DNA from: a bacterium
GTDB taxonomy: Bacteria; Patescibacteriota; Patescibacteriia; UBA9570
NCBI GenBank assembly: GCA_030698395.1
Contig: JAUYKW010000027.1
Location: 3,174 to 67,173, forward strand
Reading direction: 5' to 3'
DNA length: 64,000 nucleotides
Numbering within the stretch: the stretch's first letter is position 1; each line of letters starts with the position of its first letter. Both the position numbers and the translations under genes were made by a program. This document shows positions 13,332-64,000 of this stretch, one piece after another. A model generated the notes under the pieces. It saw nothing but the letters and a program-made list of their open reading frames with translations, ran no database searches and was not told the origin of the DNA.

Positions 13332-14462
13332 TTACTTAATTAATCCCCCACTACTTTCAACAAGTTCTGTTCCGATATATATTACATTCGGAGCATCCTG
13401 ATCAATTAAAAATGATGTTACACTTCTTGTAGTTGGAAAAGATTCTAAGGTTTTCCAGGCGTTACCATTATCAGTTGAGACATGAATTTTCTTACCAACA
13501 ACGAAATAGATTGTCTCAGAGTCTTTTGGCGCTACTGTTAGATGTCTAATATTTTTATTTTGCTTATCTTTAAAACCAATTAATGTTGTAATATCTTCCC
13601 AATCTAAACCTTCGTTATAACTACGGAGAATGCCTCGTGATGTAACTATATAAACGATTCTAAAATCATTTGGATCGAGCGCAACATCATACACACGGCC
13701 CGCACCATCGAACTTCTCTTTAAAATCTTTGGCTAATAATTTATCCCATCCAGAGTTTGTACCTCCAGCTGTATCGATTTCTTCCTGCTCATCTAATTCA
13801 TCCGGAGTAACCAAAGCTTCCCCGCCATTAGTTGTTTTATATAATACTCCCTCGCTAGTAAGAGCATATATAATTCTAGTATTGTATGGTGCCATTAACA
13901 TCTCTACAACTGGATTTTCGATTTGTAAATGTAAATCCCAGTTTATTCCATAGTCATAACTTTTGATAATTGTCCCAGCAGAAGTCGAAGCATAAATACG
14001 TGATGTATCATAACTATCAACAACTATAACATTTACTTTTGAAGCCTTTACATCAGAATATACATTTTCCCAGGTTTCACCACCATCTACCGTTTTCATT
14101 ATTGTTGTATTTTTTGCAACGTATATTGTTTCAGGATTTTTTGGATCAAATGCAATACTGGTTACAGATCCATTATTAATTTGCGATTGCACCCAAGTTT
14201 CTCCTCCATCCAAAGTAGTATACATACCGTTACCATTTGTCCCAATATAAATGATATTTGAATCATTCGGATGCGCTACTGTAGTAGCAATATTTACATC
14301 ACTTATGGTTGTTTTCTTTCTTCCTTCCTGGCTAATAAAAGTTTTTTGCTCCCATGATTCACCACCATCATATGATTTAAAAACACCACCATCTGCTACT
14401 TCGCCGCAAGATGCTCCAATCAGAAGTAATAATGATAAAAGAATAAAATTATATTTAGTCAT
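13332..14462 (-). CDS. secreted BNR/Asp-box repeat beta-propeller protein (Ycf48/sialidase-like fold)
   Basis: 376 aa. N-terminal signal peptide (LLSLLLLIGASC). Seven S/TxDxGxTW-type Asp-box repeats (YDGGESWEQ, TLDGGETWVQ, TVDGGETWEN, SYDYGINWD, TTNGGEAL, SYNEGLDWED, STDNGNAWKT). Confidence 0.6.
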   Translation of the reverse strand: MTKYNFILLSLLLLIGASCGEVADGGVFKSYDGGESWEQKTFISQEGRKKTTISDVNIATTVAHPNDSNIIYIGTNGNGMYTTLDGGETWVQSQINNGSVTSIAFDPKNPETIYVAKNTTIMKTVDGGETWENVYSDVKASKVNVIVVDSYDTSRIYASTSAGTIIKSYDYGINWDLHLQIENPVVEMLMAPYNTRIIYALTSEGVLYKTTNGGEALVTPDELDEQEEIDTAGGTNSGWDKLLAKDFKEKFDGAGRVYDVALDPNDFRIVYIVTSRGILRSYNEGLDWEDITTLIGFKDKQNKNIRHLTVAPKDSETIYFVVGKKIHVSTDNGNAWKTLESFPTTRSVTSFLIDQDAPNVIYIGTELVESSGGLIK

Positions 14463-35154: not shown

Positions 35155-36404
35155 TTATTGAATGCCCACTTCATTAGGCGTTCAGTTTCGGAAAATCTCG
35201 TCCATGGAGATGGCGAGCCAAAAAGTACGGTTATAACCTCCCTATCACCATCTTTCGCTTTCAATGCCAAACAATAAAGCGCCTCATCAAGATATCCCGT
35301 TTTACTACCTGTGATATATAAATCACTAGTCCTCATCAATTCATTTGTATTCTTAAAACTGTGCACTTCACCAGTATTCCTCGTGACAAAACTATATGAG
35401 GACGCCGCTGTATGTTCAAGCATCTGAGGTGACTTCATTATCAGGCGTACGAATTTAGCATAATCTGCAACAGTAGACTGATTCAAAGGATCTAATCCAG
35501 ATGGATCAGCAAAGGTTGTATTCTCTAAACCAAGTTCTTGAGCTTTAAGATTCATCATACCCACAAACTCTTCCTTGGAATATCCCGCATGATATACCAA
35601 AGCGTAAGCAGCATTATTTGCCGACCCTACAGTCATAGCGTACATCAAATCGTTCATAGATAAAATTTCTCCATTATTCATGCGTAAACGTGCGCCAATT
35701 TGATCAAATTGTGAATAATAAGTAACTTCTCTATCCAAATCCACATTATTTGAAAATAATACGTAAGCTGTCATCAGCTTTGTTAAAGATGCAATTGATC
35801 TTTTTTCCGTGGTATTTTTACCGTATAATTCTTCACCTGTAGCTTCATCAATAGCAATTACTGCTACGGCATTTATATCGCCTAAATCTTGATATTCGCT
35901 CTTTTTTATTGGTCCAATTGAATATCTTAAATCATCAAATACACCAACTATTGAGTATGGAAAATGCCACGCTGCCCTGACTCTGTTATTCACAGTATCT
36001 AAATATGTTGGCAAAGCAATCCACTCTTCCAGTGTGCCATCATAGTAATACACATTACGCTTATGCTCTGGATCCTCTGAGTAATCAAATGATAGCCAAA
36101 TTGGTTTATCAAAATATCCAACATTTTCAAAATCTATTTGATACAAAAACACATCAGATGCTGGCTCTAAATAGCTTGGTAATTCTGGATAAACAGCCTT
36201 TTTTCGTAACCAAAAGGGTGCCTCTCCTATAAAAGTATTAGGTTGTATTCCAACTGAAGCAGACTCTAACTGCAAGGTATAACCACGTGTCATAGTTTCT
36301 TCATCAAGAAAAACCTTATTGCTAAGTTGCTTTGCCGAAGCAGAAACTGGTAATACCAAAAGAACAAATGCAAAACTTAATGTTGCTATTTTAAACTTAA
36401 TCAT
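35142..36404 (-). CDS. D-alanyl-D-alanine carboxypeptidase (S11, PBP5/6-like) with extra N-terminal domain
   Basis: 420 aa. Signal peptide, about 170-aa N-terminal domain, then SxxK (SLTK), SxN (SANN) and KTG (KTGY) motifs. Confidence 0.75.
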   Translation of the reverse strand: MIKFKIATLSFAFVLLVLPVSASAKQLSNKVFLDEETMTRGYTLQLESASVGIQPNTFIGEAPFWLRKKAVYPELPSYLEPASDVFLYQIDFENVGYFDKPIWLSFDYSEDPEHKRNVYYYDGTLEEWIALPTYLDTVNNRVRAAWHFPYSIVGVFDDLRYSIGPIKKSEYQDLGDINAVAVIAIDEATGEELYGKNTTEKRSIASLTKLMTAYVLFSNNVDLDREVTYYSQFDQIGARLRMNNGEILSMNDLMYAMTVGSANNAAYALVYHAGYSKEEFVGMMNLKAQELGLENTTFADPSGLDPLNQSTVADYAKFVRLIMKSPQMLEHTAASSYSFVTRNTGEVHSFKNTNELMRTSDLYITGSKTGYLDEALYCLALKAKDGDREVITVLFGSPSPWTRFSETERLMKWAFNNYSW

Positions 36405-37168
36405 TATCCTGCAGAATTATTTGGATCGTATCCGTTATTGATTTCACTGCCATCCTCATGACCATCACCATCGGTATCTACCTTTAATGGATCGGTTTTA
36501 TGAGTTTTTACTTCATCATAATCTGTTATTCCGTCACCATCAGTGTCTGGAACATTTTCATCAGTTCCATATTTCTTTTCATCAATATCACGTAAACCAT
36601 CACCATCGGTATCCCGTTCATGTAAGGGTACATTTGTAACATCAGTCGTAGTGTCATCTTCAGAAACTGGCGTCTCCTCAGTTGTATTTTCCTCAATAAC
36701 AGCTTCCTCATCCTTCTGTTCTTCTTTAATATTTTCTTCTGTAGTTGTTGTAGTGGTTCCGTTAGAAAATGGATCCAATGATAAATAAAGCCAAATCCCA
36801 CCACCCACCAAAAGACCAACCACTATTAATACAACAAATAACATTATCAACTTCTGTGTCGCTGATAAAGTTTCTCGCTTAAACATATCCGATACTGCTT
36901 GATCTGGTTGTTCAAAAGTACCTGGTGGGCTAATGGATGCACCAGCATCGTTGTTTAATCCTGCAAATCCAGTTGATGGTTTTGATGGATGCTGCGGAGT
37001 TGTTGGCGGAGGTTGTGGTCCTAAAGATTGCGGTGGCATATATGCGGCTTGCCCCGGCGGAGATAGAGGTTGTGCTACCGCAGGTTGCTGCGGAGTTGTT
37101 GGCGGAGGTTGTGTTGTTGGTGGTACTGGCCCACCTGATTGCCCTCCGTCTGACGCATCTTCAAACAT
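36404..37168 (-). CDS. Pro/Thr-rich single-pass membrane protein with C-terminal thrombospondin type-3-like Ca-binding repeats
   Basis: Start is taken at the second Met (37168, MFEDASDGG...) so that it does not overlap the divergent kinase start. N-terminal PPTTQPPPTTPQ low complexity, TM (IMLFVVLIVVGLLVGGGIWL), poly-Thr/Glu linker, then 3 DTDGDGxxDxDE repeats. Confidence 0.5.
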   Translation of the reverse strand: MFEDASDGGQSGGPVPPTTQPPPTTPQQPAVAQPLSPPGQAAYMPPQSLGPQPPPTTPQHPSKPSTGFAGLNNDAGASISPPGTFEQPDQAVSDMFKRETLSATQKLIMLFVVLIVVGLLVGGGIWLYLSLDPFSNGTTTTTTEENIKEEQKDEEAVIEENTTEETPVSEDDTTTDVTNVPLHERDTDGDGLRDIDEKKYGTDENVPDTDGDGITDYDEVKTHKTDPLKVDTDGDGHEDGSEINNGYDPNNSAG

Positions 37169-37190
37169 GAAAAAAGTATAGCACAGATTG

Positions 37191-38861
37191 ATGTTTTGGT
37201 ATATAATTAATTCGATGGCAAAAAAACAAGGAGGCATCCTACAAAACCTTAAACTAACACAGAAAATATTCTTTATTTTTGTGTTAATGATTATCTTGGT
37301 GATTAATTCATGGGCATTTACTTTAACGACGGTACTAGATTTTCAAGAAAGTTTTTCCAAAGTAGAAACCTACGCATTTCCAAGTATTATTAAAACTTCA
37401 CAATTGAAAGATCATTTGCACATTGCATTGCTCGGTGTCTATAATTATATAAATACTGGTGATGAAGCGAGTAAACTAGTATACCAAGAGCAATTTACAG
37501 AAGCTATCAGAGCAGAATATGATTTGTTTCAGTTATCGGAAACATCAACAGATTTCATTTTCACACAACAATTTAACGAAAAATTATTAGCGATCTACAA
37601 TACAACTGATGAACTTGTAACTACATATGAGTTTGACCCTACATCTTCTGATGTTACAGAAAAATTAAGCCAATTGAATGGTTTAAGAGATGATTTTAAT
37701 ACATTTTTAAAGGATGAAATAACTACCCAAGTTGAACAACAAATTACCAATGCTAATGAGGGCATTAATTCTACAGTACAACAAATCCAATACTATTTAA
37801 TTGGTGTAGCAGTAATAGTTCTACTAATTATCATATTTATCTTGATTTTCATATCAAATAATATTACGAAGCCAGTAGCAATCTTAACTAAAGCAGCAGA
37901 AGAATTTGGTAAAGGTAAATTCGAAAAGGTTGAGATTAAGCATAATGATGAGCTGGGTCTATTTGCTAAGACGTTCAACAAAATGGCAAAAGATATTCAA
38001 TCTAGCCAAAAAGCATTGCAAGAAGAATTAGAAAAAACCAAAGAGCTAGATAGACAAAAATCTGAATTTCTTTCTGTGGCTGCTCATCAACTACGTACAC
38101 CTATGGCTGGTATCAGATGGGCCTCACAAATGCTATACGACGGAGACATGGGGAAACTTAACGAAGAACAAAAGCATCATCTAGGTGCAGGTTTGGATAA
38201 CATTAATAGAATGATCAAGTTAATTAATGATTTACTTGATGTCACAAAAATTGAAGAGCAAAAATTCAACTATACTTTTGTAAAAAGTGATATTACTTTA
38301 GCTGTTCAAGAAATTATAGACAGACTACAAGACCAAGCCAATGCCAAAAAGGTTAAAGTAACTCTAGATGCACCAAAAACATCTTTGTTGATTGAATTTG
38401 ATAAAGAAAAAATGGATATGGCATTGAACAACCTACTTGATAACGCAATAAAATACAGTAAACCAAGTGGACATGTTGACATTTCAATAAAAAAATCTAA
38501 GGATGGAATTGAATGTACGGTTCAAGATGATGGAATTGGAATTCCAGATAAGTCTCAAAATGAAGTATTTACGAAATTTTTTAGAGCTCCAAACGCTATG
38601 AAAGTATTCGCTGATGGCAGTGGACTCGGACTATATATGTTACAAGATATTATACATAAACATGAAGGTAATATCTCGTTTAAATCTAAAGAAGGTGAAG
38701 GCACTTCGTTTACTTTTTACTTACCAAAAACTCAACTTATATCGAAAAACAACATCAAAGCAAAGATGCTTGTAAGTGACGAAAATCAGACAGAAAAAAA
38801 ATCTACTGACGACTCAGAAAATTCAGAAAGCACTGAAGAAAAAGTCGAAGAAGAGAGCTAA
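37191..38861 (+). CDS. sensor histidine kinase (orphan, no adjacent response regulator)
   Basis: About 555 aa. Two TM segments flank a ~150-aa sensor domain. HAMP domain. HisKA H-box SVAAHQLRTP. HATPase N-box (DNAIKYS), G1 (DDGIGIP) and G2 (GSGLGL). Start is the ATG at 37191 or 37215. Confidence 0.75.
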   Translation: MFWYIINSMAKKQGGILQNLKLTQKIFFIFVLMIILVINSWAFTLTTVLDFQESFSKVETYAFPSIIKTSQLKDHLHIALLGVYNYINTGDEASKLVYQEQFTEAIRAEYDLFQLSETSTDFIFTQQFNEKLLAIYNTTDELVTTYEFDPTSSDVTEKLSQLNGLRDDFNTFLKDEITTQVEQQITNANEGINSTVQQIQYYLIGVAVIVLLIIIFILIFISNNITKPVAILTKAAEEFGKGKFEKVEIKHNDELGLFAKTFNKMAKDIQSSQKALQEELEKTKELDRQKSEFLSVAAHQLRTPMAGIRWASQMLYDGDMGKLNEEQKHHLGAGLDNINRMIKLINDLLDVTKIEEQKFNYTFVKSDITLAVQEIIDRLQDQANAKKVKVTLDAPKTSLLIEFDKEKMDMALNNLLDNAIKYSKPSGHVDISIKKSKDGIECTVQDDGIGIPDKSQNEVFTKFFRAPNAMKVFADGSGLGLYMLQDIIHKHEGNISFKSKEGEGTSFTFYLPKTQLISKNNIKAKMLVSDENQTEKKSTDDSENSESTEEKVEEES

Positions 38862-53758: not shown

Positions 53759-54115
53759 TTAGTCATTTAATAAAAAAACTGCTGATGCTATTGCATAGTC
53801 ACCATCATGACTAATTGATATATCATGCGATAAAATTTCCGCTTCACCTTCATATTTCAAAATAGGATGGCCAGTTTTGCTGTAACGAATTCCTATTTGT
53901 TTCCAATTCCCTGCTTCTAATCCCAGTGCTTTAATTACCGCTTCTTTGGCGGCAAAAACACCTGCCAAATGCTGTGCAGAATTTGATACAGTCAATTCTT
54001 CCACTTGAAATATCTTATCTAGAAAATCTTGTCCCGAATTTTTTTTTGATTTTTCAAATTTCTTTATGTGTACAATGTCACAACCTGTTTTGATTTTCAT
54101 GTATGTATTATGCAC
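53759..54115 (-). CDS. acpS: holo-ACP synthase (4'-phosphopantetheinyl transferase)
   Basis: 118 aa. GCDIVHIKKF (GxDxxE/H) and FAAKEAVIKALG motifs. Confidence 0.8.
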   Translation of the reverse strand: MHNTYMKIKTGCDIVHIKKFEKSKKNSGQDFLDKIFQVEELTVSNSAQHLAGVFAAKEAVIKALGLEAGNWKQIGIRYSKTGHPILKYEGEAEILSHDISISHDGDYAIASAVFLLND

Positions 54116-54137
54116 TATTTATATAAAATTCACAAAC

Positions 54138-54167
54138 AAAAAAGAGGCCTAACTTGGCCCCTTTTTT
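54138..54167. terminator. weak intrinsic terminator-like hairpin flanked by A6 and T6, downstream of the major pilin gene
   Basis: AAAAAAgaGGCCtaacttGGCCccTTTTTT. A 4-bp GGCC/GGCC stem with a 6-nt loop, symmetric A/T runs, in the 66-nt gap between pilin and acpS. Confidence 0.3.
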
Positions 54168-54181
54168 GTTCTTATATAGGG

Positions 54182-54712
54182 TTATCGTGAACTTACAATC
54201 TCACTTGTATTTTCCGATTCACATGATCTAATTCGTAAAATCCCAGTAGTTTCTTTTTGGATGGTATAGCCTGTAGTTGCTGCTGTCCAAGTTCCAAGAC
54301 CATCAGGACTAATTGGTATGTCTCCAATGTAACCTTGAGTTATAATATCATCACCTCCGGTAGTTAAATCCAAACAAACTGCTTGCGTAGGGTTTGTATC
54401 ACAGAAATCAGTTACAGTTGTAGCTGTTGCTCCACTAGCACAAGAACCAATTAAGTAAACTTCACCTGCAGTCGCGCCATTAACTGCTGAATTGTAATAT
54501 CCGCCATTATCAACCTGATCCACTTTAAGTGCAGACAAAACTTCACTGGCTTGTGCTGCTCTTTTTGAATCTCTAGAATCAGCTAATCTCGATAAAGGAT
54601 CCAAGGCAACAAATAGAATCACAGCCAAAATTGCAATAATCGCCACTACGATTAAAAGCTCGATTAATGTGAAACCTTCATTTTTTTTATTTAATTCTTG
54701 TCGAATGTTCAT
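54182..54712 (-). CDS. type IV pilin (major pilin candidate)
   Basis: 176 aa. Class III signal ...NKKNEG|FTLIELLIVVAIIAILA with Glu at +5. Two Cys near the C-terminus. Confidence 0.75.
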   Translation of the reverse strand: MNIRQELNKKNEGFTLIELLIVVAIIAILAVILFVALDPLSRLADSRDSKRAAQASEVLSALKVDQVDNGGYYNSAVNGATAGEVYLIGSCASGATATTVTDFCDTNPTQAVCLDLTTGGDDIITQGYIGDIPISPDGLGTWTAATTGYTIQKETTGILRIRSCESENTSEIVSSR

Positions 54713-54758
54713 AATATATACATTGAAAACTATTTTTTATTAAAACCAGATTACTTAT

Positions 54759-54787
54759 ATTATATTATATTTAATAACTTACGTCAA
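54759..54787 (-). promoter_or_regulatory. sigma70-like promoter TTGACG-17-TATAAT upstream of the pilin gene
   Basis: On the minus strand, TTGACG (plus 54782-54787) is followed by a 17-nt spacer and TATAAT (plus 54759-54764), about 45 nt upstream of the pilin ATG. It overlaps the pilM stop. Confidence 0.4.
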
Positions 54788-56025
54788 TTTGAAGCATTTT
54801 TAATCACCCAGATAATAGCAGCAATTGACAAGCCACCAACAATAATTACAACTAGCATAACTAATTGCTTTTTTGTTTTTTTATCCACTCCCGAACTAAT
54901 TACTGAAATTTTAGTACCTGATCTTTCTTTTGTCTTAATCTTTTTTTCTTTTAATTCTGATTCACTCAATCTTAAATCTACTGATTGTTTTTGATATTTC
55001 GCATCAGTAGGATACATAGCTAATCCAACTGCTTCCACATACATTGATGCCTGATCCCCTTGCGGTATGCTAATTTCAGGAATCTGCCCTTCGGTTTGTC
55101 TTTGCGCTAAATAATTAGAGAGAAACTCCGTTAAACCTGGCAACTGAGCACTTCCACCTGTTAAGAATAATTCCTGCGGCATATGTTGATACAAACTATA
55201 ATATTTTTGCAGACTACTAGTAATCTTTTCTGCTAATGGTTGGACAATATTGATCATGTCAGGTGACTCCAGGCCGAATGAAATTTTTTGCGCTTCAGCT
55301 GCTTCAAACGATCCACCAATTTTTTGTGCTAATTGTGTGGTCCATACAAATCCACCAGTTAATATCGTTTCACTAATAATTGGCTGGCCTTGATAAAAAA
55401 ATGTTAACACAGTCTTTGTTCCTCCAATATCTGCAACTGCCATAGATGATTGTTGAAACTCAGAATCTCGATCTGCAAGAATTCCTCTCATAATACCTAA
55501 TACTTCTGGTTCTATGGCAAGAACCTCTATGCCAACTTCCTTAAAAAACAGTTGCCAATTTTTCACAATCTGTTTATCTACGCCAAATATAGTATAGTTT
55601 TCTGATCCGTCTGCCAGCACATTCTTTAACCATACAATATGTAAATTTTCATCTTCTATTAAAAATGTTGCTCGAGCTTGGTCACGTAAAACTTCCTCTA
55701 GTTTCTCACCAGTTAAATCCTGACCATCATTCTGAATATTATAATTTAAAGAATATACTAAGGAATCAGGAAAACTCACAACCGCCTTTCTGCTCTCTGC
55801 TGGTTGAGGCGATGCATTATCTAATAAAGATTGAAATATATTATTCAAACCTTCACGATTTTTAATTCTTCCTTGGACAATTACATCTCTAGCTAACTCT
55901 GCTCTAGCATAACTAACCATATTAAAGCTAGATCTAGCTTTACTAAGTTCAACGATTTCGATAGATGTATCAGCTATATCTATACCAAGGTATGATTTCA
56001 TTGTTTTTAGGGATTTAATTGCCAA
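54784..56025 (-). CDS. pilM: type IV pilus assembly protein PilM (actin-like ATPase) with C-terminal basic linker plus TM helix
   Basis: 413 aa. Actin/FtsA-like fold (GIDIADTSIEIVEL, DIGGTKTVL, LTGGSAQLPGL). The last ~40 aa are KKTKKQLVMLVVIIVGGLSIAAIIWV, a PilN-like membrane anchor without a periplasmic domain. Confidence 0.7.
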   Translation of the reverse strand: MAIKSLKTMKSYLGIDIADTSIEIVELSKARSSFNMVSYARAELARDVIVQGRIKNREGLNNIFQSLLDNASPQPAESRKAVVSFPDSLVYSLNYNIQNDGQDLTGEKLEEVLRDQARATFLIEDENLHIVWLKNVLADGSENYTIFGVDKQIVKNWQLFFKEVGIEVLAIEPEVLGIMRGILADRDSEFQQSSMAVADIGGTKTVLTFFYQGQPIISETILTGGFVWTTQLAQKIGGSFEAAEAQKISFGLESPDMINIVQPLAEKITSSLQKYYSLYQHMPQELFLTGGSAQLPGLTEFLSNYLAQRQTEGQIPEISIPQGDQASMYVEAVGLAMYPTDAKYQKQSVDLRLSESELKEKKIKTKERSGTKISVISSGVDKKTKKQLVMLVVIIVGGLSIAAIIWVIKNASN

Positions 56026-56414
56026 CTAGTTAAAGAAACATCTCCACCAGATACTACTGTAACAGCTTCTACTGTTGCATAATAATCACTTATATTTCCA
56101 ATAGAATTGATTGCCCGTTCAGTACCCCCATCAGACGTAACCGTTATTGTACAAGAATTACCACCTATACTCAAGACCTGAGTACCAGCTCCGACTGCCC
56201 AATTTTCATCATAGCGCAATCTGCGTAATACTTCCTCTGTACAACTATCCGCTAATACTATGGCAGATTCTGTTTCACCAGCAGAATAACTTAAGTCCAA
56301 CTCGCCAATTCCTAACAAACTAATTGATAAAGCTATTGTAGTTGTAACAGACGCAATTATAACAATTGCTATTAATGCTGCTGCTCCAGAGTGATCAAAT
56401 AAATATATTTTCAT
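56007..56414 (-). CDS. pilin-like/PilX-like small protein (no canonical E+5)
   Basis: 135 aa. Hydrophobic N-terminus MKIYLFDHSGAAALIAIVIIASV... Lies between pilin-like genes. Confidence 0.4.
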   Translation of the reverse strand: MKIYLFDHSGAAALIAIVIIASVTTTIALSISLLGIGELDLSYSAGETESAIVLADSCTEEVLRRLRYDENWAVGAGTQVLSIGGNSCTITVTSDGGTERAINSIGNISDYYATVEAVTVVSGGDVSLTSWQLNP

Positions 56415-56917
56415 CTTCTTACGGATACTGCAGTTTGATAAGTTTGACTAGTTGCATACTCAGCACTATCCGTACCACTATATTGCAATGTCATTTGAAC
56501 ACGAACATTTTCCACTCGACCATTACCTGTTAAATTTGTAAATTGTAGATTTGTTACACTCACCAGTGTGGGCATCACAATAATTGGTCCGGTAGCTCCT
56601 TCAGTAATTTGTATTTGACCATTATCAGCTGTAAGTTCTATTACTGTTGGGTTCTTTGCCACGTCAGCCATTGATAGTTCTAACACGCCGGGATCTGAAC
56701 TAAAAGTACTTCCTCCTAAATTTACTCCGGATGAACCACGAATTGCATCTGTTATGTACTCCATTGCAAATCTAGCATTAGCGTTTATTTCCTGATGCAC
56801 CGCTGCTTTGGACCTAGCCTGAAACATAGTTAAGGAAAAACTGATAAAAGCTACAACAACAGCGCTAGTAAGGGCTACGTATATCAACAACTCAATTAAA
56901 GTAAAACCTTTTTTCAT
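56411..56917 (-). CDS. minor pilin/pseudopilin
   Basis: 168 aa. MKKG|FTLIELLIYVALTSAVV class III signal. Confidence 0.7.
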   Translation of the reverse strand: MKKGFTLIELLIYVALTSAVVVAFISFSLTMFQARSKAAVHQEINANARFAMEYITDAIRGSSGVNLGGSTFSSDPGVLELSMADVAKNPTVIELTADNGQIQITEGATGPIIVMPTLVSVTNLQFTNLTGNGRVENVRVQMTLQYSGTDSAEYATSQTYQTAVSVRR

Positions 56918-56918
56918 G

Positions 56919-59900
56919 TTAGCGATAATTTATTATTACATCTTCTAAAATTGGCGTAGAAATTCCATCGCCTGTAAATTCTGCACGATACTGCACCCAT
57001 TGATTACCATTTAAAGCTGTAGGAGGTAACATACCATTTTGATCTGTAAAATAAGTTCCTGCACCTGTAGCACCAAACCAAGATGTCCATGTTCCTGGAG
57101 CGCCAGTTACATCTGGTGCAGTGCGCAATTGGAATTGTATTGTACAACTAGGCGAACATGCAGGTAATACCTCTGACCATTCAATCACTTGCAAAGGTGA
57201 AGTGTCCGTCATGTCAAAAGCAGATGAAGTTAGTGTGCCTGAGGTAGTATAGGTGCCAGTGCTCGTACGGGTAAACTTCATGAATAAACCAGCATCACCA
57301 ACAGTCCAACCCTCTGTACTATCTCCTCTTGAAATGTCATTTAAATTCGTCGTAGTTGGAGATGTAAATAACGCCCAATCAATTCCATTATAAACCATTA
57401 ACGTACCTGCATCACCAACGGCCCAGCCATCATTCGTTGCTATCATATCAATACCATTCAAATTGTTAGTAGTTTGTGAAATTCTAGACACCCAACTAAT
57501 ACCATTCCAGTAAATTATCACACCACCATCGCCCATCGCCCACGCATCACTGCTACTAACCATGTAAACCGCATTAAGATTATTTCCAGTTGGAGATGTA
57601 ACTGTACTCCATGCAGAGCCATTCCACTGTACAATTGTTCCTGCAGCGCCAACAGCCCAACAATCCGAACTCGATATACAATCAACGTCATTTAGGATAT
57701 TACCCGTGGGAGATGTTGCCGTAGACCAACTAGTACCATTCCAAGTAGCTATTGTTCCAGCATCACCAACTACATAAGCTACAGAGCTATTTACAGCTTC
57801 TACACCATTTAGACCATTACCGGTTGGCGATGTAACTGTACTCCAAGTACCAGTACTATACTGCACAATCGTACCTAACGCACCTACTGCCCAACCATTA
57901 TTTACATCTATAAATGTAAGATCGTATATATTATTGCTTGTCGGTGAGGTGTCAGACGTCCAGGCAACGCCATCAAAACTAAACAACGTACCAACGTTAC
58001 CTCCGGCATATCCTACAGTAGATGAAATCATATCTACAGCATTTAAGTTTTGAGTTGTTGGATTGTTATAGTTCACCGTAAGTTCTTCCAATACTGAGGT
58101 GAAATTAGCATCGGTTGTTGTGAATGTAACAAAATACTGTAAATACCTACCGTTAGGAGAAATTATTGGTTCCCCGCTTGGATTTGAATAAGCACCAGAG
58201 TATGCAGACCAACTTGCATCTGGTACAGCCACCTCACCAGTACGGGAATCGATTGATAGATTGGTTGCTGGGTTAGTGGTGTCTTCCACCCAAGAAATCC
58301 AATCCCATGTTGCTCCTGCACTGCCACTATCTATAATTGAAGATTCAAATGTACCAGTTAAAAAATAAAGATTACTGTACTGAATAAATGTAGATTGAGC
58401 ACCTGCAGCCCATACATTGGTGCTAGCTACCATATTTACAGTATACATATTTTTTGCGGTGGGAGATGTTACAGTAGCCCAAGCAGATCCATTCCATTGT
58501 AGTAAAGCACCACCTGCACCAACGGCCCAAGCATCAGATGCATTTAGTATAAAAATGTCATACAAAGCACTACCAGTTGGCGAGGTTACAGTAGCCCAAG
58601 CAGATCCATTCCACTGAATAATTACACCATCTGCACCAACGGCCCAGCAATTGTTTGAAACGGAACAATGAACCCCATTGAGGGCGCTACCAGTTGGAGA
58701 AGTTACAGTAGCCCAGGCAGATCCATTCCATTGGATAATTACTCCACCCGCGCCAACCGCCCAGCAATCCGAAGTTGATACACAATGAACCCCATTGAGG
58801 GCGCTACCAGTTGGAGAAGTTACAGTAGCCCAGGCAGATCCATTCCATTGGATAATTACTCCACCCGCGCCAACCGCCCAACCATCGCTACTAGATACCA
58901 TTGAAACGCTACTTAAAAGACTGCCAGTAGGAGATGTTTGAGTAGCCCAGGTACTGCCATTGTAATATATTATTGTACCTGACTGACCAACTGCCCAGCA
59001 GTTAGCTGTATCGGCACAATTAACTCCCTGTAAATTACTAGTTGTCGGTGAAATTACACCAAGCCAATCCACACCATTATATTCATAAATCGTTCCTCTG
59101 TTAGCTACAGCCCAGCCATCGCTGGCATCAATCATATCCAAACTATTTACATCTTCGTTGCCTAATGATGATGTTAAATCAGACCAAACGGAACTATTGT
59201 ATCGTACCAACAAAGGTTGCTTATTTTTACCACCCACTGAATGAACATCAATAGCAGATAACGCTTCAATATCTTTAAGGGTATCTATAGCAACTGCAGG
59301 AGTAACATCATTCCAAGTAGTTCCGTTCCATTCAAGAATTTTTCCGGTTCCTGTTGTTCCGCCAGATATATATCCAGAACTAGCTGAAAGCATGGATACT
59401 CCGTATAAAATTCTGGTTGTAGGACTAGATTGAGTAAACCAAGTAGAGCCATTGTAATAAATAATTTCACCACCAGCTCCAGCTGACCAACAATTAGATG
59501 TATCATAGCAATCAATTCCATTCAACTGCTTTGTAGTTGGTGAGCTAAAAGAACTCCAACTTGTGCCATTCCATTGTAATATTTCGCCTTGCCAGCCAAC
59601 TGCCCAGCCATCTGACGCTGATACAAAATCCACTCCAAAAAGGTTTCTGGAAGTAGGCGAACTAAAACTAGTCCAAATAGCACCGTTCCATTTCAAAATT
59701 GTTCCGCCATCACCCACTATCCAACCATCACTTGCCGAAATCATTTTTATTGCGTTTAAATCGGATGTTGTACCAGAAGTAACAGTAGACCATGTGACTC
59801 CGTTCCAATGTATTATGACTCCACTTACGCCAATGGCCCATATATTATTAGCCGACACTATGTCAATTGATAATAACTCTGTAGACACTCCACTGCTAAC

Positions 59901-60788
59901 ACCGGTCCAACTGGTTCCATTCCACTTCAGAATGGCACCATTATCTCCAACAGCGTAGCCTAAAGAGGTAGATAAAAAATCCAATCCATTCATAGATTCC
60001 TGAGTTATAACATCGCCAGTTGGAGCAAATACACCCCAGTCAACAGATTGACTAATGGTTATGCTTGCATCGGCTCCAATACCATTTATCTGCGTGTCCG
60101 TTAGTGTTCCAGCGCCAAAGTCTGTATCAGATGTATGTGTAGCATTACTGCCACCACCAGGTATCCATTGATCAAGATTTCCTGACGAAACACCAGTTAA
60201 ACTAATTTGTCCAGCCCTTGTGAAGTCTATATTGCCATCACCTGAATCATACATAGTTGCATCAGACCAGATGGATTGTCCAGAACCGCCAGACCAATCC
60301 GTCTGTGTCCATTCATCTGCATCCCAATTAGTTATATAGCCAATATACTCTTCACTACTTGTTTGGCCTACTGTATTTTCCCATGAAACTGTTACCATAA
60401 TTTGCTTGCTATGAATATCCAAAGTATCACCACCTACACCGCAAGTTACAATATCAAAACTTACATTTCTACATACATCAGCAAAAGAAATTGTTCTCGT
60501 AAAATTACCGATAATTTCACTTGTACCTTCACCATCAAATACCCATTCACTCCCAGAAACAGAAACCGAAGATTGATCATATTCTACGCGATTCCAAGAA
60601 TCATCATGAATCGCGCGCACGGCCTCATAGCCTTCTCTTGCTAAAGCAGTTGCTTCTGCTCTCTGCTGTCCACCGATAGTTCCAGCAAAGCTACCTAGAA
60701 TTGTAGAAACCAAAGCGCCAGCTATAAATGCAAAAATTGCTAGAGCTAATAAAATTTCTACAACTGATTGTCCGGAACGATTTTTCAT
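56919..60788 (-). CDS. giant pilin-like protein: prepilin N-terminus plus about 20 beta-propeller blades plus two paralogous ~90-aa modules
   Basis: 1289 aa. N-terminus MKNRSG|QSVVEILLALAIFAFIAGALV is a class III signal with E+5. From about aa 250 there are ~39-aa repeats of the form WAVGxxGxIIxWNGxxWxxVTSPTxxxLNGV (two runs of 14 and 6 blades). Each run is followed by a related module ending ...LEELTVNYN or ...LEDVIINYR. Confidence 0.7.
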   Translation of the reverse strand: MKNRSGQSVVEILLALAIFAFIAGALVSTILGSFAGTIGGQQRAEATALAREGYEAVRAIHDDSWNRVEYDQSSVSVSGSEWVFDGEGTSEIIGNFTRTISFADVCRNVSFDIVTCGVGGDTLDIHSKQIMVTVSWENTVGQTSSEEYIGYITNWDADEWTQTDWSGGSGQSIWSDATMYDSGDGNIDFTRAGQISLTGVSSGNLDQWIPGGGSNATHTSDTDFGAGTLTDTQINGIGADASITISQSVDWGVFAPTGDVITQESMNGLDFLSTSLGYAVGDNGAILKWNGTSWTGVSSGVSTELLSIDIVSANNIWAIGVSGVIIHWNGVTWSTVTSGTTSDLNAIKMISASDGWIVGDGGTILKWNGAIWTSFSSPTSRNLFGVDFVSASDGWAVGWQGEILQWNGTSWSSFSSPTTKQLNGIDCYDTSNCWSAGAGGEIIYYNGSTWFTQSSPTTRILYGVSMLSASSGYISGGTTGTGKILEWNGTTWNDVTPAVAIDTLKDIEALSAIDVHSVGGKNKQPLLVRYNSSVWSDLTSSLGNEDVNSLDMIDASDGWAVANRGTIYEYNGVDWLGVISPTTSNLQGVNCADTANCWAVGQSGTIIYYNGSTWATQTSPTGSLLSSVSMVSSSDGWAVGAGGVIIQWNGSAWATVTSPTGSALNGVHCVSTSDCWAVGAGGVIIQWNGSAWATVTSPTGSALNGVHCSVSNNCWAVGADGVIIQWNGSAWATVTSPTGSALYDIFILNASDAWAVGAGGALLQWNGSAWATVTSPTAKNMYTVNMVASTNVWAAGAQSTFIQYSNLYFLTGTFESSIIDSGSAGATWDWISWVEDTTNPATNLSIDSRTGEVAVPDASWSAYSGAYSNPSGEPIISPNGRYLQYFVTFTTTDANFTSVLEELTVNYNNPTTQNLNAVDMISSTVGYAGGNVGTLFSFDGVAWTSDTSPTSNNIYDLTFIDVNNGWAVGALGTIVQYSTGTWSTVTSPTGNGLNGVEAVNSSVAYVVGDAGTIATWNGTSWSTATSPTGNILNDVDCISSSDCWAVGAAGTIVQWNGSAWSTVTSPTGNNLNAVYMVSSSDAWAMGDGGVIIYWNGISWVSRISQTTNNLNGIDMIATNDGWAVGDAGTLMVYNGIDWALFTSPTTTNLNDISRGDSTEGWTVGDAGLFMKFTRTSTGTYTTSGTLTSSAFDMTDTSPLQVIEWSEVLPACSPSCTIQFQLRTAPDVTGAPGTWTSWFGATGAGTYFTDQNGMLPPTALNGNQWVQYRAEFTGDGISTPILEDVIINYR
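58439..58906. repeat. 117-nt (39-codon) tandem repeats inside the giant pilin gene; the two central copies are near-identical
   Basis: 58673-58789 and 58790-58906 share an identical stretch of about 91 nt (ccccattgagggcgctaccagttggagaagttacagtagcccaggcagatccattccattggataattactccacccgcgccaaccgccca). Copies at about 58556 and 58439 are roughly 80 to 85% identical. They encode ...WAVGAGGVIIQWNGSAWATVTSPTGSALNGVHC... blades. Confidence 0.7.
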
Positions 60789-60789
60789 A

Positions 60790-61242
60790 TTAATAAACTG
60801 CTCCCAAGCTTGTTACTGTTATATAAACTGATTGTACATCTGATGTTATCGTTACAGTTCCTGGATTATCCGGTAAAGCAGATCCTGCAGTAAAATTTAC
60901 TCCTGATAACCCAGAGATTTCAATGTTACCTTTCATTTGAGTTGTTATGTCATATGCTGTATCTCTAGTTGCATAACTAGTCCCCTGGTATAAAGTAAAG
61001 TTTGTTAAAGTAAAATTTACCCCATGTGCCGTACTGTTCTTTTTTCCTTTTGCCCGTTGATGCGCAACGCGAAGTGATTGCACAATTTCTTGTCTGGTTT
61101 GTTCTACTTGAGCTGTGTCCTGACTAGATCCATACAATCCCCCAATTCCAAATATCATTATACTTAAAATAGCAATCACAATTAATAACTCTACGAGTGT
61201 AAAGCCACGTTTATTGCTGTGTAATATTGCCAGTAATTTCAT
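60790..61242 (-). CDS. minor pilin/pseudopilin (GspH/PilV-like)
   Basis: 150 aa. ...SNKRG|FTLVELLIVIAILSIMIF class III signal. 32-nt overlap with the pilC 3' end. Confidence 0.7.
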   Translation of the reverse strand: MKLLAILHSNKRGFTLVELLIVIAILSIMIFGIGGLYGSSQDTAQVEQTRQEIVQSLRVAHQRAKGKKNSTAHGVNFTLTNFTLYQGTSYATRDTAYDITTQMKGNIEISGLSGVNFTAGSALPDNPGTVTITSDVQSVYITVTSLGAVY

Positions 61243-62323
61243 AAATTGGAGTAATGATAGATATTGCCAATGCGGCCACTACTAATCCTATAAAAATTAG
61301 CATAACAGGTTCGAGTGCTGTTGATAAAGATTTTGTAGTATTATCCAATTCATCATCAAAAAAGTCTGCAAGATAATTGAGATTTTCTTCTATCCTACCG
61401 GATTTCTCTCCTACACTCACTAATCTACTAACAATTTTTGGAAAAATATCCTCATGAAATGCTATATGTTCTGAGACCGATGCACCTCGTTTTACATGTT
61501 TTGTAATGTCTGTAATTGCTTGCTTAAAATAATAATTACTTACAGTATTATGAGTAATCTTTAAAGCATTATCAATTGTTAAACCACTTTTTAATAACAA
61601 ACTTAATGTTCTACAAAATTGAATAAGATTTGTATATTTCACAACTCCCTTAACGATGGGTATCCGTAGCACTATCCAATGAACAACTGGTTGGGAAAAT
61701 TTTTGCCTAATTACCCAAGCCAAAAAACTTCCACCAACTACAACAACTAGAAAAACTTCAATTCCATATTGATCAAAAAAGTTTGATAACCATAAAAGAA
61801 TTCTCGTACTTAAAGGTAACTCTATGCGCAATCCAGAAAAGAAACCGCTTAATTGAGGTAAAACAAAAAGTGCGAAAGAAAATCCTAATATTCCGGCAGC
61901 CCCTAAAACGGTTATTGGATAGATTAAAGCTCCCTTTATTTTATCTCTTAACTCCTTATCTTTTTTTAACTGACTAGCAATATAGGTAAAATTTTGTTCT
62001 AGTGTTCCAGACTCTTCGCCAATTTTAACCATATTTACATATAGTTCTGAAAATACTTTTGGAAATTTTGCTAAAGCATCTGATAATTTCTGTCCAGTTT
62101 CTATTGTTTTCAAAACTTTTATTAGGACTCGACGCATTTTTCCTGAAGATTGATCTACAGTAATTCTAATAGTTTCAACAATCGGAATACCAGAAGCAAG
62201 CATTATTGCACAATATTTTGCAAACAACATCTTTTGCTCTATATTGATTTTACCAATAGTTACTTCATTTTGAAATAAATTTTTTTCAACTAGCGTATCT
62301 TGTTTATTTTTTTTTATAGCCAT
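61211..62323 (-). CDS. pilC: type IV pilus/T2SS platform protein PilC (GspF family)
   Basis: 370 aa. Duplicated GspF cytoplasmic domains and 3 TM segments. Confidence 0.85.
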   Translation of the reverse strand: MAIKKNKQDTLVEKNLFQNEVTIGKINIEQKMLFAKYCAIMLASGIPIVETIRITVDQSSGKMRRVLIKVLKTIETGQKLSDALAKFPKVFSELYVNMVKIGEESGTLEQNFTYIASQLKKDKELRDKIKGALIYPITVLGAAGILGFSFALFVLPQLSGFFSGLRIELPLSTRILLWLSNFFDQYGIEVFLVVVVGGSFLAWVIRQKFSQPVVHWIVLRIPIVKGVVKYTNLIQFCRTLSLLLKSGLTIDNALKITHNTVSNYYFKQAITDITKHVKRGASVSEHIAFHEDIFPKIVSRLVSVGEKSGRIEENLNYLADFFDDELDNTTKSLSTALEPVMLIFIGLVVAALAISIITPIYEITGNITQQ

Positions 62324-62324
62324 A

Positions 62325-63971
62325 TTATTGGGTTACGCGTAATACTTCTTTTAATGTTGTAGATCCATTTAAAGCTTTTTGCACGCCGTCATCCAACATT
62401 GTGCTCATACCATTACGACGAGCTGCATTCATTATTTTTGATGAGTCTGCTCTCTCCACTACCAAACTTCTTATCTCATCAGTCATTTCTAAAATTTCAA
62501 ATACGCCGACTCTACCCCGATAGCCAGTATTCACACAATTATTACACCCAGCTCCATAAAATGCAGACATAGTTGCTGGATCTTCAATTCCTGCTTTCTT
62601 TAAAGTTTCTAATAACTTAGGTTGATGATTAATGAAGTCAATCGTCTCTTGTAATGGTGGTCCTGAACGAATACAAGAAGAACAAATCTTCCGCAATAAA
62701 CGTTGTGCAATAATGATCCGCACTGTTGAAGCAACTAAAAATGGCTCTACTCCCATATCTATCAATCTTGGTATGGCAGTTGCTGCATCATTTGTATGTA
62801 ATGTAGAGAGTACGAGGTGTCCAGTTAAAGCCGAATTAACAGCAATGCCAGCTGTCTCCTCATCTCTTATTTCACCAACCATCATGATGTCTGGATCTTG
62901 TCGTAAAAGAGATCTTAACCCATCAGCGAAAGTAAGATTTGTTTTTGTGTTGACTTGCACTTGGGTTACACCTTCAATATCATATTCAACTGGATCTTCA
63001 ACTGTTGAAATGTTAACTTCCCGCCGATTTAAAATTTTTAAAATTGCATATAATGATGTAGTTTTTCCACATCCTGTTGGTCCGGTAGATAAAATCATGC
63101 CATGTGGATTTGCAATTGCATCTCGTACGATCTCCATATGTTCCTCACCCATGCCTAAATTTTCCAATGTATATGATCTAGCAACATCACTTAAAATACG
63201 CATAACAGTTTTTTCACCGGATGTGCTAGGCAAGATTGAAACTCTAATATCTATCGTTGTATCACCGTCAACTTCAAATTGTAATTTACCATCTTGAGCA
63301 GATCTATGCTCATCGGTTCTTAATTTTGCTAATATTTTTATCCTAGTGGTCAACAGCTCTAATACATTCTTATTCATGCGGACAATATCATGTAAAATAC
63401 CATCAACTCTTAATCTAATAACTACTTCATCATCAAATGGTTCTACGTGAATATCAGATGCTTTATTATGATAAGCATATGAAATAATTTCATCTACGAT
63501 CTCTACAATCAGATCTTCATTTTCCAGTAACGCATCGGGATTTGCTAAAACGCTTTTGATGCTTTCTCCAATACTACTTTCATAAGATCCGGTAGCCATC
63601 TCAATATCCACTTTGGAAGCGAAGAACAAATCCGCATGTAAACCAGTTTTCTTTTCTACCATACGAACAATCTCCATATCGGTAGGGTCGGCCATAGCAA
63701 TTTTTATACTAGCATCTGTCATTTCATAAGCAATTACCTGTCGTTTTTTTGCTACAAATTCCGGTATTACAGACAATGCCTCTTTAGAAATAGTATGCTG
63801 TGATAAGTTAACAAATCTATAACCATAAAATTCAGCAATTAACTTACCTAACTGTGCATCTGTCAGCCACCCTTTGTTAGTTATGAATTCCCCAATATCT
63901 AAGTCTGAATTTTTTTGAACAGCTAAAGTTATCTCCGCGTACTGTACATCTGTAATGAATCCAGGCTCAAC
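62325..63971 (-). CDS. pilB: type IV pilus assembly ATPase PilB (GspE family)
   Basis: Walker A GPTGCGKTT, Asp box, His box, and a CxxC...CxxC tetracysteine (CSSC...CNNC). The track ORF starts at an internal TTG (63776). The same frame is open up to the TAG at 63972-63974, and the extra 65 aa (LSLEFITDVQYAEITLAVQKNSDLDIGEFITNKGWLTDAQLGKLIAEFYGYRFVNLSQ...) are a typical GspE N-terminal domain. Start is probably the TTG at 63969-63971, giving about 549 aa. Confidence 0.8.
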   Translation of the reverse strand, partial: VEPGFITDVQYAEITLAVQKNSDLDIGEFITNKGWLTDAQLGKLIAEFYGYRFVNLSQHTISKEALSVIPEFVAKKRQVIAYEMTDASIKIAMADPTDMEIVRMVEKKTGLHADLFFASKVDIEMATGSYESSIGESIKSVLANPDALLENEDLIVEIVDEIISYAYHNKASDIHVEPFDDEVVIRLRVDGILHDIVRMNKNVLELLTTRIKILAKLRTDEHRSAQDGKLQFEVDGDTTIDIRVSILPSTSGEKTVMRILSDVARSYTLENLGMGEEHMEIVRDAIANPHGMILSTGPTGCGKTTSLYAILKILNRREVNISTVEDPVEYDIEGVTQVQVNTKTNLTFADGLRSLLRQDPDIMMVGEIRDEETAGIAVNSALTGHLVLSTLHTNDAATAIPRLIDMGVEPFLVASTVRIIIAQRLLRKICSSCIRSGPPLQETIDFINHQPKLLETLKKAGIEDPATMSAFYGAGCNNCVNTGYRGRVGVFEILEMTDEIRSLVVERADSSKIMNAARRNGMSTMLDDGVQKALNGSTTLKEVLRVTQ

Positions 63972-64000
63972 TAATATATTTTTCCATTGATCAATGGTAA

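Follow-up and report, generated by a model that had tools for sequence, protein, structure and literature searches.

A core type IVa-like pilus operon of Patescibacteria and its giant modular minor pilin with predicted Ycf48-like propellers

Type IV pili are near-universal in Patescibacteria, the superphylum also called the Candidate Phyla Radiation (CPR) (PMC11623550). In Nanosynbacter lyticus TM7x the minor pilins resemble the pseudopilins of type II secretion systems (T2SS), with a jelly-roll in PilX1 and a seven-bladed propeller of RCC1 type in PilX2 (PMC11623550), and deletion of pilX2 halves host binding while the filament is still present (Grossman et al. 2024, PMC11623550). Pilins of this broad design were defined as modular pilins by Raynaud et al. 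(2021), who found over 1,200 examples, spread over 264 architectures (PMC8179133). Of the 15 representatives given for the top modular-pilin architectures, six come from CPR bacteria, including Magasanik-, Falkow- and Wolfebacteria, lectin modules of family PF13385 are prominent, and the 'most extreme case' cited is an 860-aa protein from Falkowbacteria (PMC8179133). Here we describe a pilus locus at positions 54182-64000, on the minus strand, of a 64-kb stretch of DNA (assembly GCA_030698395.1, contig JAUYKW010000027.1, positions 3,174 to 67,173; the whole of this 64,000-nucleotide stretch is called the window). The largest gene of the locus encodes a 1289-aa minor pilin, hereafter the giant. 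The locus is a core type IVa-like pilus (T4aP-like) operon of a Patescibacteria bacterium with a presumably monoderm-type envelope, and we consider it likely that the priming and tip complex of its pilus includes the giant as a modular pilin, presenting three propellers as an adhesin for host attachment.

The case for the giant as a pilin begins at its N-terminus, where a class III signal leads into a module that, in structural models, has a GspI/GspK-type pilin fold. The best fold matches of this module are to GspK (3ci0_K, match figure 8.4), XcpV/GspI (5bw0_B, 8.3) and EpsI (2ret_A, 8.0), followed by XcpX (6.5), the Thermus competence pilins 6qvf (6.5) and 5g25 (6.1) and the Streptococcus sanguinis modular pilin PilB (5.7). 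Across the N-terminal 215 residues of 29 aligned family members, Glu+5 is invariant, Gly-1 is present in at least 90% and two cysteines are kept throughout the main subfamily. We counted the class III motif, taken as (G/A/S)xxxxE followed by a hydrophobic stretch, in orthologues from 80 species-representative genomes and found it in 70 of 80 orthologues of the giant, as well as in those of its pilin neighbors (68 of 71 for the 150-aa pilin, 62 of 63 for the 168-aa pilin and 79 of 82 for the major pilin). An earlier, sequence-only reading of the window had taken these N-termini for class III signals and had named in advance what would speak against that view, namely no conserved Gly-1 or Glu+5 in homologues; the motif is kept in about 88-98% of orthologues.

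Behind the pilin module and a short junction, 21 blades of 39 aa can be counted, and therefore three seven-bladed propellers are predicted. The fourteen blades of residues 262-805 would make up two propellers of Ycf48/BNR-like type, and for the third, a phmmer search of the PDB aligns residues 958-1174 with Ycf48 (5ojr, 6.8e-7). Structural support for this fold comes from P0043, a natural homologue of 730 aa with the layout pilin, junction, beta-module, one propeller and C-module. Its model has a mean pLDDT of 86, and its propeller matches Ycf48 by Foldseek with E=7e-15 and a TM score of 0.73. The C-terminal module of the giant matches weakly at the equivalent internal position in homologues, and the corresponding part of the P0043 model consists of beta-structure throughout. 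Within the giant gene, a 117-nt tandem repeat at 58462..58951 on the minus strand, with a core of 2.7 copies matched at 90%, encodes three nearly identical 39-aa blades (WAVGAGGVIIQWNGSAWATVTSPTGSALNGVHC); such near-identity indicates recent blade duplication or gene conversion. The same repeat is possibly prone to assembly collapse.

The junction is among the most conserved stretches of the family and is modeled poorly by AF2, with pLDDT below 50 over residues 159-183 and of 52-59 beyond. We also considered a single split jelly-roll, formed by the junction and the C-terminal module and holding the cargo between them, and found it unsupported, as the junction occurs alone in non-pilin proteins that have no C-terminal module. 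In these, a motif of about 40 aa, W(T/I/V)QTDWSGGSGQxxWSD...GQxxL, directly follows the signal peptide in several large surface proteins, is internal in two of them and is followed by unrelated domains (L076-L082); the records are from Fibrobacterales, Actinomycetes, Dojkabacteria, Nitrospirota and others.

The family to which the giant belongs keeps its ends and exchanges its middle. Among the candidates scored, 397 homologues were found at E<=0.001, and the full-length ones with an organism name are from Patescibacteria. In 1.84 billion representatives, a profile of the N-terminal module matches 551 clusters (50% identity) at E<=1e-30, a number that rises to 4390 at E<=1e-10, and among the matches listed the module is nearly always N-terminal, in proteins of up to 2414 aa. 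The giant aligns with P0065 (817 aa) only at residues 6-205 (53% identity) and 1177-1289 (62%), and with P0092 (1318 aa) likewise only at the ends, the middles being unrelated in both comparisons. The C-terminal module lies at the extreme C-terminus in 45 listed homologues and in 48 of the 67 orthologues of the species set. Lengths of giant orthologues run from 274 aa, in a protein truncated by its contig, to 2299 aa. Five or more propeller blades are present in 19 of 67 orthologues; in a set of 20 orthologues with four or fewer blade motifs, Laminin_G_3/ConA-like domains occur in five, and Laminin_G_2, Pentaxin, DUF4082 and DUF2341 are also found. The giant evolves far faster than the pilus machinery. 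Between L050 and L057, PilB is 93% identical and the giant 56%; between L069 and L073 the figures are 86% and 55%; and between L028 and L030, with PilB 75% identical, the giant aligns only at its two end modules. Fixed ends with a fast, exchangeable middle are what would be expected of a receptor-binding subunit under diversifying pressure.

The operon around the giant is widespread. A scan with the N-terminal module, built on seven closer sequences, gave a set of 80 loci, one genome per species, from Magasanik-, Uhr-, Ryan-, Falkow-, Berkel-, Komeili-, Buchanan-, Dojka-, Campbell- and Paceibacteria, among others. About 65 of the 80 share the order seen in the window: PilB, PilC, the 150-type pilin, the giant, the 168-type and 135-type pilins, PilM and one to four major-pilin paralogues. 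Because this order recurs so often in species-representative loci, the locus is the common pilus operon of non-Saccharibacteria CPR and not a peculiarity of the window genome. The giant gene itself sits in a conserved slot between the H-like and J-like pilins in these ~65 loci. The window organism is near none of the representatives, its PilB being about 51% identical at best; within the analysis, its placement in Patescibacteria draws on the organism names of the homologues, on the genes present and on a low GC content.

Upstream of PilB, relatives encode response regulators and a PAS histidine kinase (L008, 4666..6482; L001, 3277..3615) or a PilT-like T2SSE ATPase of 365 aa with a kinase and two regulators (L002, 991..6571), and these two-component genes next to PilB point to regulated pilus assembly. 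A PilD-like five-helix protein with a GDVKL motif lies upstream of the operon in L037 and is the sole candidate that a regular-expression scan returned from the 80 loci. In L031, a second, inverted partial cluster (PilB of 405 aa, PilC and an H-like pilin, on the opposite strand) stands upstream of the main operon, which suggests duplicated pilus machinery in some CPR genomes. Many records, among them L005, L009 and L013-L015, are titled 'uncultured Gammaproteobacteria' or 'Candidatus Saccharibacteria' yet carry the CPR-type operon, and are probably mislabeled.

The four minor pilins can be compared with the GspH, GspI, GspJ and GspK pseudopilins. The best NCBIfam match of the 150-aa pilin is GspH (3.3e-9, below cut-off), while neither the giant nor the 168-aa or 135-aa protein fits any family-level NCBIfam model, and for the giant no NCBIfam pseudopilin model, including TIGR01707 gspI and the GspK models, scores at E<=0.01. 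Searches of Pfam and NCBIfam gave no match to the 135-aa protein at all. Its 48 orthologues found by BLAST keep an N-terminal G↓(V/I/A)AALLT... and a hydrophobic helix, consistently without Glu+5. Gly-1 without Glu+5 is a hallmark of the GspK/PilX-type capping pilins of T2SS and of type IV pilus minor-pilin sets. Because the genes run in the order H-like pilin, giant, further pilin, Glu+5-less pilin, the four may form a priming and tip set like GspH-I-J-K, in which the giant takes the I position; for the 168-aa pilin, gene order is what suggests the J type. The major pilin is the best-conserved pilin, 51-57% identical to its orthologues, and has a weak NCBIfam match to GspG. The N-termini of the 150-aa and 168-aa pilins also give weak NCBIfam matches to the 'Verru_Chthon cassette' proteins A, C and D; the protein A profile has 1296 positions, which hints that Verrucomicrobia-type genomes have another cassette of four genes, one of them for a giant prepilin-type protein.

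PilM, which matches TIGR01175 at E=5.4e-20, below cut-off, probably starts at the ATG at 56001 (MKSYLGIDI) and not at the TTG at 56025. The sequence-only reading had given it a C-terminal membrane anchor of its own in place of a separate PilN. Such an anchor is present: the 413-aa protein has one hydrophobic segment, residues 390-408 (54802..54858), with five residues after it, and its origin can now be refined. At residues 348-353 (54967..54984), opposite INLLP in the alignment with the L052 and L060 orthologues, PilM carries SVDLRL, a degenerate motif of PilN type; the segment between PilM and the helix reads SDINLLP in those two, KSDLAFSL in L008 and QSVDLRL in the window. INLLP is the canonical N-terminal motif of PilN that is bound by PilM in PilM-PilN structures. 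Because INLLP precedes the helix in L052 and L060, the anchor is best read, on this alignment, as the remnant of a PilM-PilN fusion, cut down to motif and helix. No separate PilN or PilO is encoded in the window operon or in the ~65 related operons.

In most of about 50 PilM orthologues a transmembrane helix lies near residues 365-440 and leads into an extracellular tail, 3 to ~290 residues long; a minority have no helix. Pfam found no PilN/PilO domain in the three long tails scanned and placed SH3_3 at the tail end in two of them. The SH3_3 family includes cell-wall-binding domains. The two SH3_3-tailed proteins are PilMs of 663-707 aa (L013, 14786..16777; L048, 15076..17199), in which the domain ends the extracellular tail after the transmembrane helix. 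Their domain content suggests that the pilus base is tied to the cell wall in some lineages; the window PilM has lost this tail.

We propose a model in which PilB, as the ATPase, and PilC, as the platform, would polymerize the separately promoted and presumably highly expressed major pilin into a filament that may be retractile. The four minor pilins (150, 1289, 168 and 135 aa, in GspH-I-J-K order) would prime assembly and then occupy the filament tip, where the GspI/K-like pilin module would hold the 1289-aa subunit in the tip complex. From this position the ectodomain, with its three Ycf48-like propellers and beta-rich modules, would be displayed as an adhesin, the likeliest target being glycans or proteins of the host-cell surface. 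At the base, the fused-PilN remnant of motif and transmembrane helix would tether PilM to the membrane, and PilM would link PilB and PilC without a periplasmic PilN/O scaffold.

Several points weigh against this model. Processing of the giant and its incorporation into the filament are predictions. Its N_methyl match reaches 18 bits against a Pfam cut-off of 21.2, and position +1 is Gln, not Phe. The H, I, J and K assignments come from gene order together with one weak GspH match, one fold match and a missing Glu+5, and not from family-level scores. Propellers of Ycf48 type are not known as lectins. An assignment of ATPase and platform by HMM to a T2SS or competence system would, by the sequence-only reading, have spoken against it; the profile scores leave PilB and PilC unseparated from GspE and GspF: for PilB, TIGR02538 PilB is best with 514 bits (equivalog cut-off 675) and GspE follows with 510, below its cut-off, and for PilC, GspF scores 273 bits versus 247 for PilC, both below cut-offs. 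Finally, the window lacks PilD, PilT and any PilN/O, an absence that bears on the window and not on the whole genome.

Since the locus is cut at PilB, the lack of PilT and PilD in the window says little. The sequence-only reading had remarked that PilT, a prepilin peptidase (PilD), PilN/O and a secretin are missing from the window, and this holds in the phmmer, motif and Pfam scans described next. By phmmer, the window has no T2SSE protein other than PilB and no class III protein beyond those of the locus, the stretch upstream of PilB lying outside it. A regular-expression scan for GxGD(F/V)K(L), which is a weak test, found no A24-like prepilin peptidase among the window proteins, and Pfam found no secretin, PilN/O or A24 peptidase in ten membrane or unassigned open reading frames (ORFs), a subset of those in the window.

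The class of the machine is argued from its components. PilB, PilC, class III pilins and PilM are all matched, in line with the type IV pilus module first read from the sequence, and PilM, the lack of GspC/D/L/M or a secretin, a separately promoted major pilin with paralogues in relatives and the filaments of TM7x together argue for a T4aP-like pilus. No GspD secretin and no GspC, GspL or GspM was found in the operon, in the scanned window ORFs or in the ~65 related operons. It is unlikely that the machine is mainly a DNA-uptake (competence) pilus, with the giant as a tip DNA receptor or scaffold like Thermus ComZ, a role that would suit CPR bacteria without nucleotide synthesis. ComGA (247 bits, cut-off 300) and ComGB (151 bits, cut-off 240) both fail and score far under the PilB/GspE and GspF models; PilM is present, while it is no part of Com systems; and the cargo of the family consists of propellers and ConA/LamG-type lectin folds, not of known DNA-binding modules. 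One pilus could nonetheless do both, adhesion and DNA uptake.

A different doubt concerns the giant itself, which might be a surface adhesin that uses its pilin-like helix as a membrane anchor or export signal near the pilus base and never enters the filament. The sub-threshold N_methyl score, the Gln at +1 and the junction motif shared with non-pilin surface proteins would fit such a protein, and yet we regard it as quite improbable, given that Gly-1 and Glu+5 are kept across the giant family, that the gene is fixed inside the minor-pilin block in ~65 genomes and that a globular, GspI/K-like pilin fold is retained. Glu+5 serves subunit-subunit contacts in filaments and not anchoring.

Most improbable of all is a type II secretion-like pseudopilus, with a GspG-like piston and a GspH-I-J-K tip pushing proteins through the wall, for which the near-equal GspE and PilB scores of the ATPase, the higher GspF score of the platform, the H-I-J-K order of the minor pilins, the fold nearest GspK and GspI and the weak GspG match of the major pilin could be cited, but against which stand the lack of GspC, D, L, M or a secretin in the operon or the ~65 related loci, a T4aP-type PilM, the pili seen on CPR cells, the real filaments made by homologous TM7x systems (PMC11623550) and a 1289-aa ectodomain with no obvious role on a periplasmic piston.

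The features of the T4aP-like locus, on whose eight genes Pfam was run, are collected in Table 1. All eight are co-directional on the minus strand and stand in the order that the sequence-only reading had given: pilB, pilC, a minor pilin, the giant, another minor pilin, a PilX-like protein, PilM and the major pilin. The promoter and terminator that it had assigned to the major pilin gene were both located by consensus scan, the terminator being the sole terminator-like site within 53900..56200. Where four pilin-like genes had been counted, there are five of pilin type, four minor and one major. PilB is cut by the window end. Its frame is open as far as the window reaches (to base 63998), with 557 aa visible versus 550-608 aa in orthologues, and so a few N-terminal codons and everything upstream of PilB lie beyond the window. 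Across 56001..60000, in the giant gene, the GC fraction is 0.40-0.42 versus 0.32-0.37 in the remaining window, which may simply reflect a composition rich in Gly, Ala, Trp, Ser and Thr.

Table 1. Features of the pilus locus in window coordinates; an arrow marks the predicted processing site, and residue ranges refer to the giant.
Feature	Coordinates	Strand	Evidence
PilB-type assembly ATPase	62325..>64000	-	T2SSE E=6e-126 and MshEN (Pfam)
PilC/GspF platform protein	61211..62323	-	T2SSF in two stretches, E=2.4e-56; three hydrophobic segments
GspH/FimU-like minor pilin, 150 aa, leader MKLLAILHSNKRG↓FTLVE	60790..61242	-	N_methyl E=1.9e-9
Giant modular minor pilin, 1289 aa, whole gene	56919..60788	-	PSII_BNR E=2.7e-17; weak N_methyl E=0.0021
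Residues 1-158: class III signal MKNRSG↓QSVVE and pilin module	60315..60788	-	Long N-terminal helix, beta-sheet, two conserved Cys
Residues 160-198: junction motif WTQTDWSGGSGQSIWSD...GQISL	60195..60311	-	Among most conserved stretches of family
Residues 262-805: fourteen 39-aa blades	58374..60005	-	Blade motif count; PSII_BNR E=2.7e-17
Residues 806-908: putative internal beta-rich module, weaker copy of C-terminal module	58065..58373	-	Weak matches in homologues
Residues 909-1172: predicted third seven-bladed Ycf48-like propeller	57273..58064	-	phmmer and P0043 model
Residues 1177-1289: conserved C-terminal beta-rich module	56922..57260	-	8 invariant and 10 nearly invariant columns
Minor pilin, 168 aa, GspJ/PilW position, leader MKKG↓FTLIE	56411..56917	-	N_methyl E=2.9e-5
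GspK/PilX-like minor pilin, 135 aa, HSG↓AAALI	56007..56414	-	N-terminal hydrophobic helix; Gly-1 present, Glu+5 absent
PilM with C-terminal membrane anchor	54784..56025	-	PilM_2 E=3.9e-23, residues 14-307
Sigma-70-like promoter of major pilin gene	54787..54759	-	TTGACG-17-TATAAT, 11/12 matches; consensus match only
Major pilin, 176 aa, leader MNIRQELNKKNEG↓FTLIE	54182..54712	-	N_methyl E=1.7e-9
Intrinsic terminator 3' of major pilin gene	54171..54134	-	16-bp stem, 6-nt loop, T-run

Elsewhere in the window, a predicted lipoprotein of 376 aa (13332..14462, minus strand) carries Sortilin-Vps10, PSII_BNR and BNR Asp-box repeats (5e-24, 7e-13) and is a second, free-standing propeller surface protein that shares its broad repeat type with the pilin cargo. 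On the segment 44124..48929 (minus strand) lies the gene of an AcrB-family RND transporter (1047 aa, E=8e-144), and ahead of it that of a membrane protein of 534 aa with four helices, to which Pfam gives no match. As the organism presumably has no outer membrane, such a pump is unexpected. Bacterial TSP3 (thrombospondin type 3) calcium-binding repeats occur in a protein of 277 aa (36404..37237, minus strand) that adjoins a HAMP-HisKA histidine kinase (37188..38861, plus strand).

Beyond this one locus, CPR bacteria make up a large share of bacterial diversity and live mostly attached to other cells, and host recognition is known only for a few oral Saccharibacteria. If the giant acts as proposed, many other CPR lineages would share, as part of a conserved operon, the solution of a tip subunit that serves as adhesin, and the giant family would offer candidate host-specificity determinants that can be searched for by sequence in uncultivated lineages. 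To judge by the operon, a pilus machine as reduced as this one, with a membrane-tethered PilM, may suffice. More speculatively, and with the balance of probability still against it, the giant family may be the host-range determinant of non-Saccharibacteria CPR, with pilin module, junction motif and C-terminal module as a fixed docking frame at the pilus tip, into which rapidly diversified receptor-binding cassettes (propellers, ConA/LamG lectins and others) would be swapped by recombination, all mounted on a minimal machine of PilB, PilC and tethered PilM that needs no PilN/O scaffold. In that case the host type of uncultivated CPR could be predicted from the type of cargo.

Among described systems, TM7x is alike in belonging to the same superphylum and in having a T4aP-like machine, a small and highly expressed major pilin and pseudopilin-like minor pilins, one of them large. 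It differs in encoding separate PilM, PilN and PilO, plus PilT and PilD, in its locus, and its PilX2 has one RCC1-type propeller, whereas the giant has three of predicted Ycf48/BNR type and a C-terminal module; the two are likened here by description only. A literature search, which cannot prove absence, found no earlier account of a triple Ycf48-type propeller pilin, of this family with its conserved N- and C-terminal modules and cassette-like cargo, of a fixed H-I-J-K-like placement of the giant across many CPR classes, or of a PilM-PilN remnant as sole alignment component.

With its class III signal and pilin module joined to domains from outside type IV pili (PSII_BNR propellers), the giant has the makeup by which modular pilins are defined. 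At 1289 aa, and with up to 2299-2414 aa in its family, it is far larger than the 860-aa extreme among the modular pilins of Raynaud et al., a class that also includes those of S. sanguinis (PilB with a vWA module, PilC with a lectin). Nor is it a simple C-terminal graft, as both its end modules are conserved and what lies between them can be exchanged. The GspH-I-J-K and FimU-PilV-PilW-PilX sets offer a further comparison. In GspK the extra domain is a small alpha-domain inside the sheet, whereas the pilin module of the giant has over 1,100 residues behind it, and unlike the T2SS tip set the window locus has no secretin or GspCLM in the scanned ORFs.

The PilY1/PilC adhesins of diderm T4aP are likewise large propeller adhesins of a minor-pilin tip complex, encoded in a minor-pilin operon and modular with variable parts. 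PilY1 differs in being a non-pilin without a class III signal and with a single PilY1-type propeller, whereas the propellers of the giant sit in the pilin polypeptide itself. We considered the giant as a PilY1-type accessory protein and ruled this out by its conserved class III signal, its pilin fold and the lack of a PilY1 domain, Pfam reporting PSII_BNR and N_methyl and no PilY1/Neisseria_PilC domain. CofB and TcpB of type IVb pili and ComZ of Thermus, discussed in PMC8179133, are also minor pilins; they carry bulky additional beta-domains and have been proposed to lie at the tip, to start assembly or to bind ligands. They belong to other pilus classes, their extra domains are unrelated and they are much smaller than the giant. 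With Ycf48/HCF136 the giant shares the seven-bladed propeller fold and weak sequence similarity; at 66.9 bits versus an NCBIfam cut-off of 326, the likeness is one of fold and repeat type only, and the propellers of the giant are non-photosynthetic and extracellular in context and stand three in tandem.

The sequence-only reading had seen in a prepilin leader fused to a multi-propeller ectodomain the mark of an undescribed surface system. The architecture is borne out, by the class III signal and the Ycf48-like propellers; the novelty is not, as the same operon occurs across Patescibacteria and both the propeller minor pilin of TM7x and modular pilins have been published. A pilus that displays a large adhesin as an integral pilin is thus a published concept, with a CPR propeller case among its examples, and the locus described here is a large, uncharacterized example of an already described pilin design rather than a new kind of surface system.

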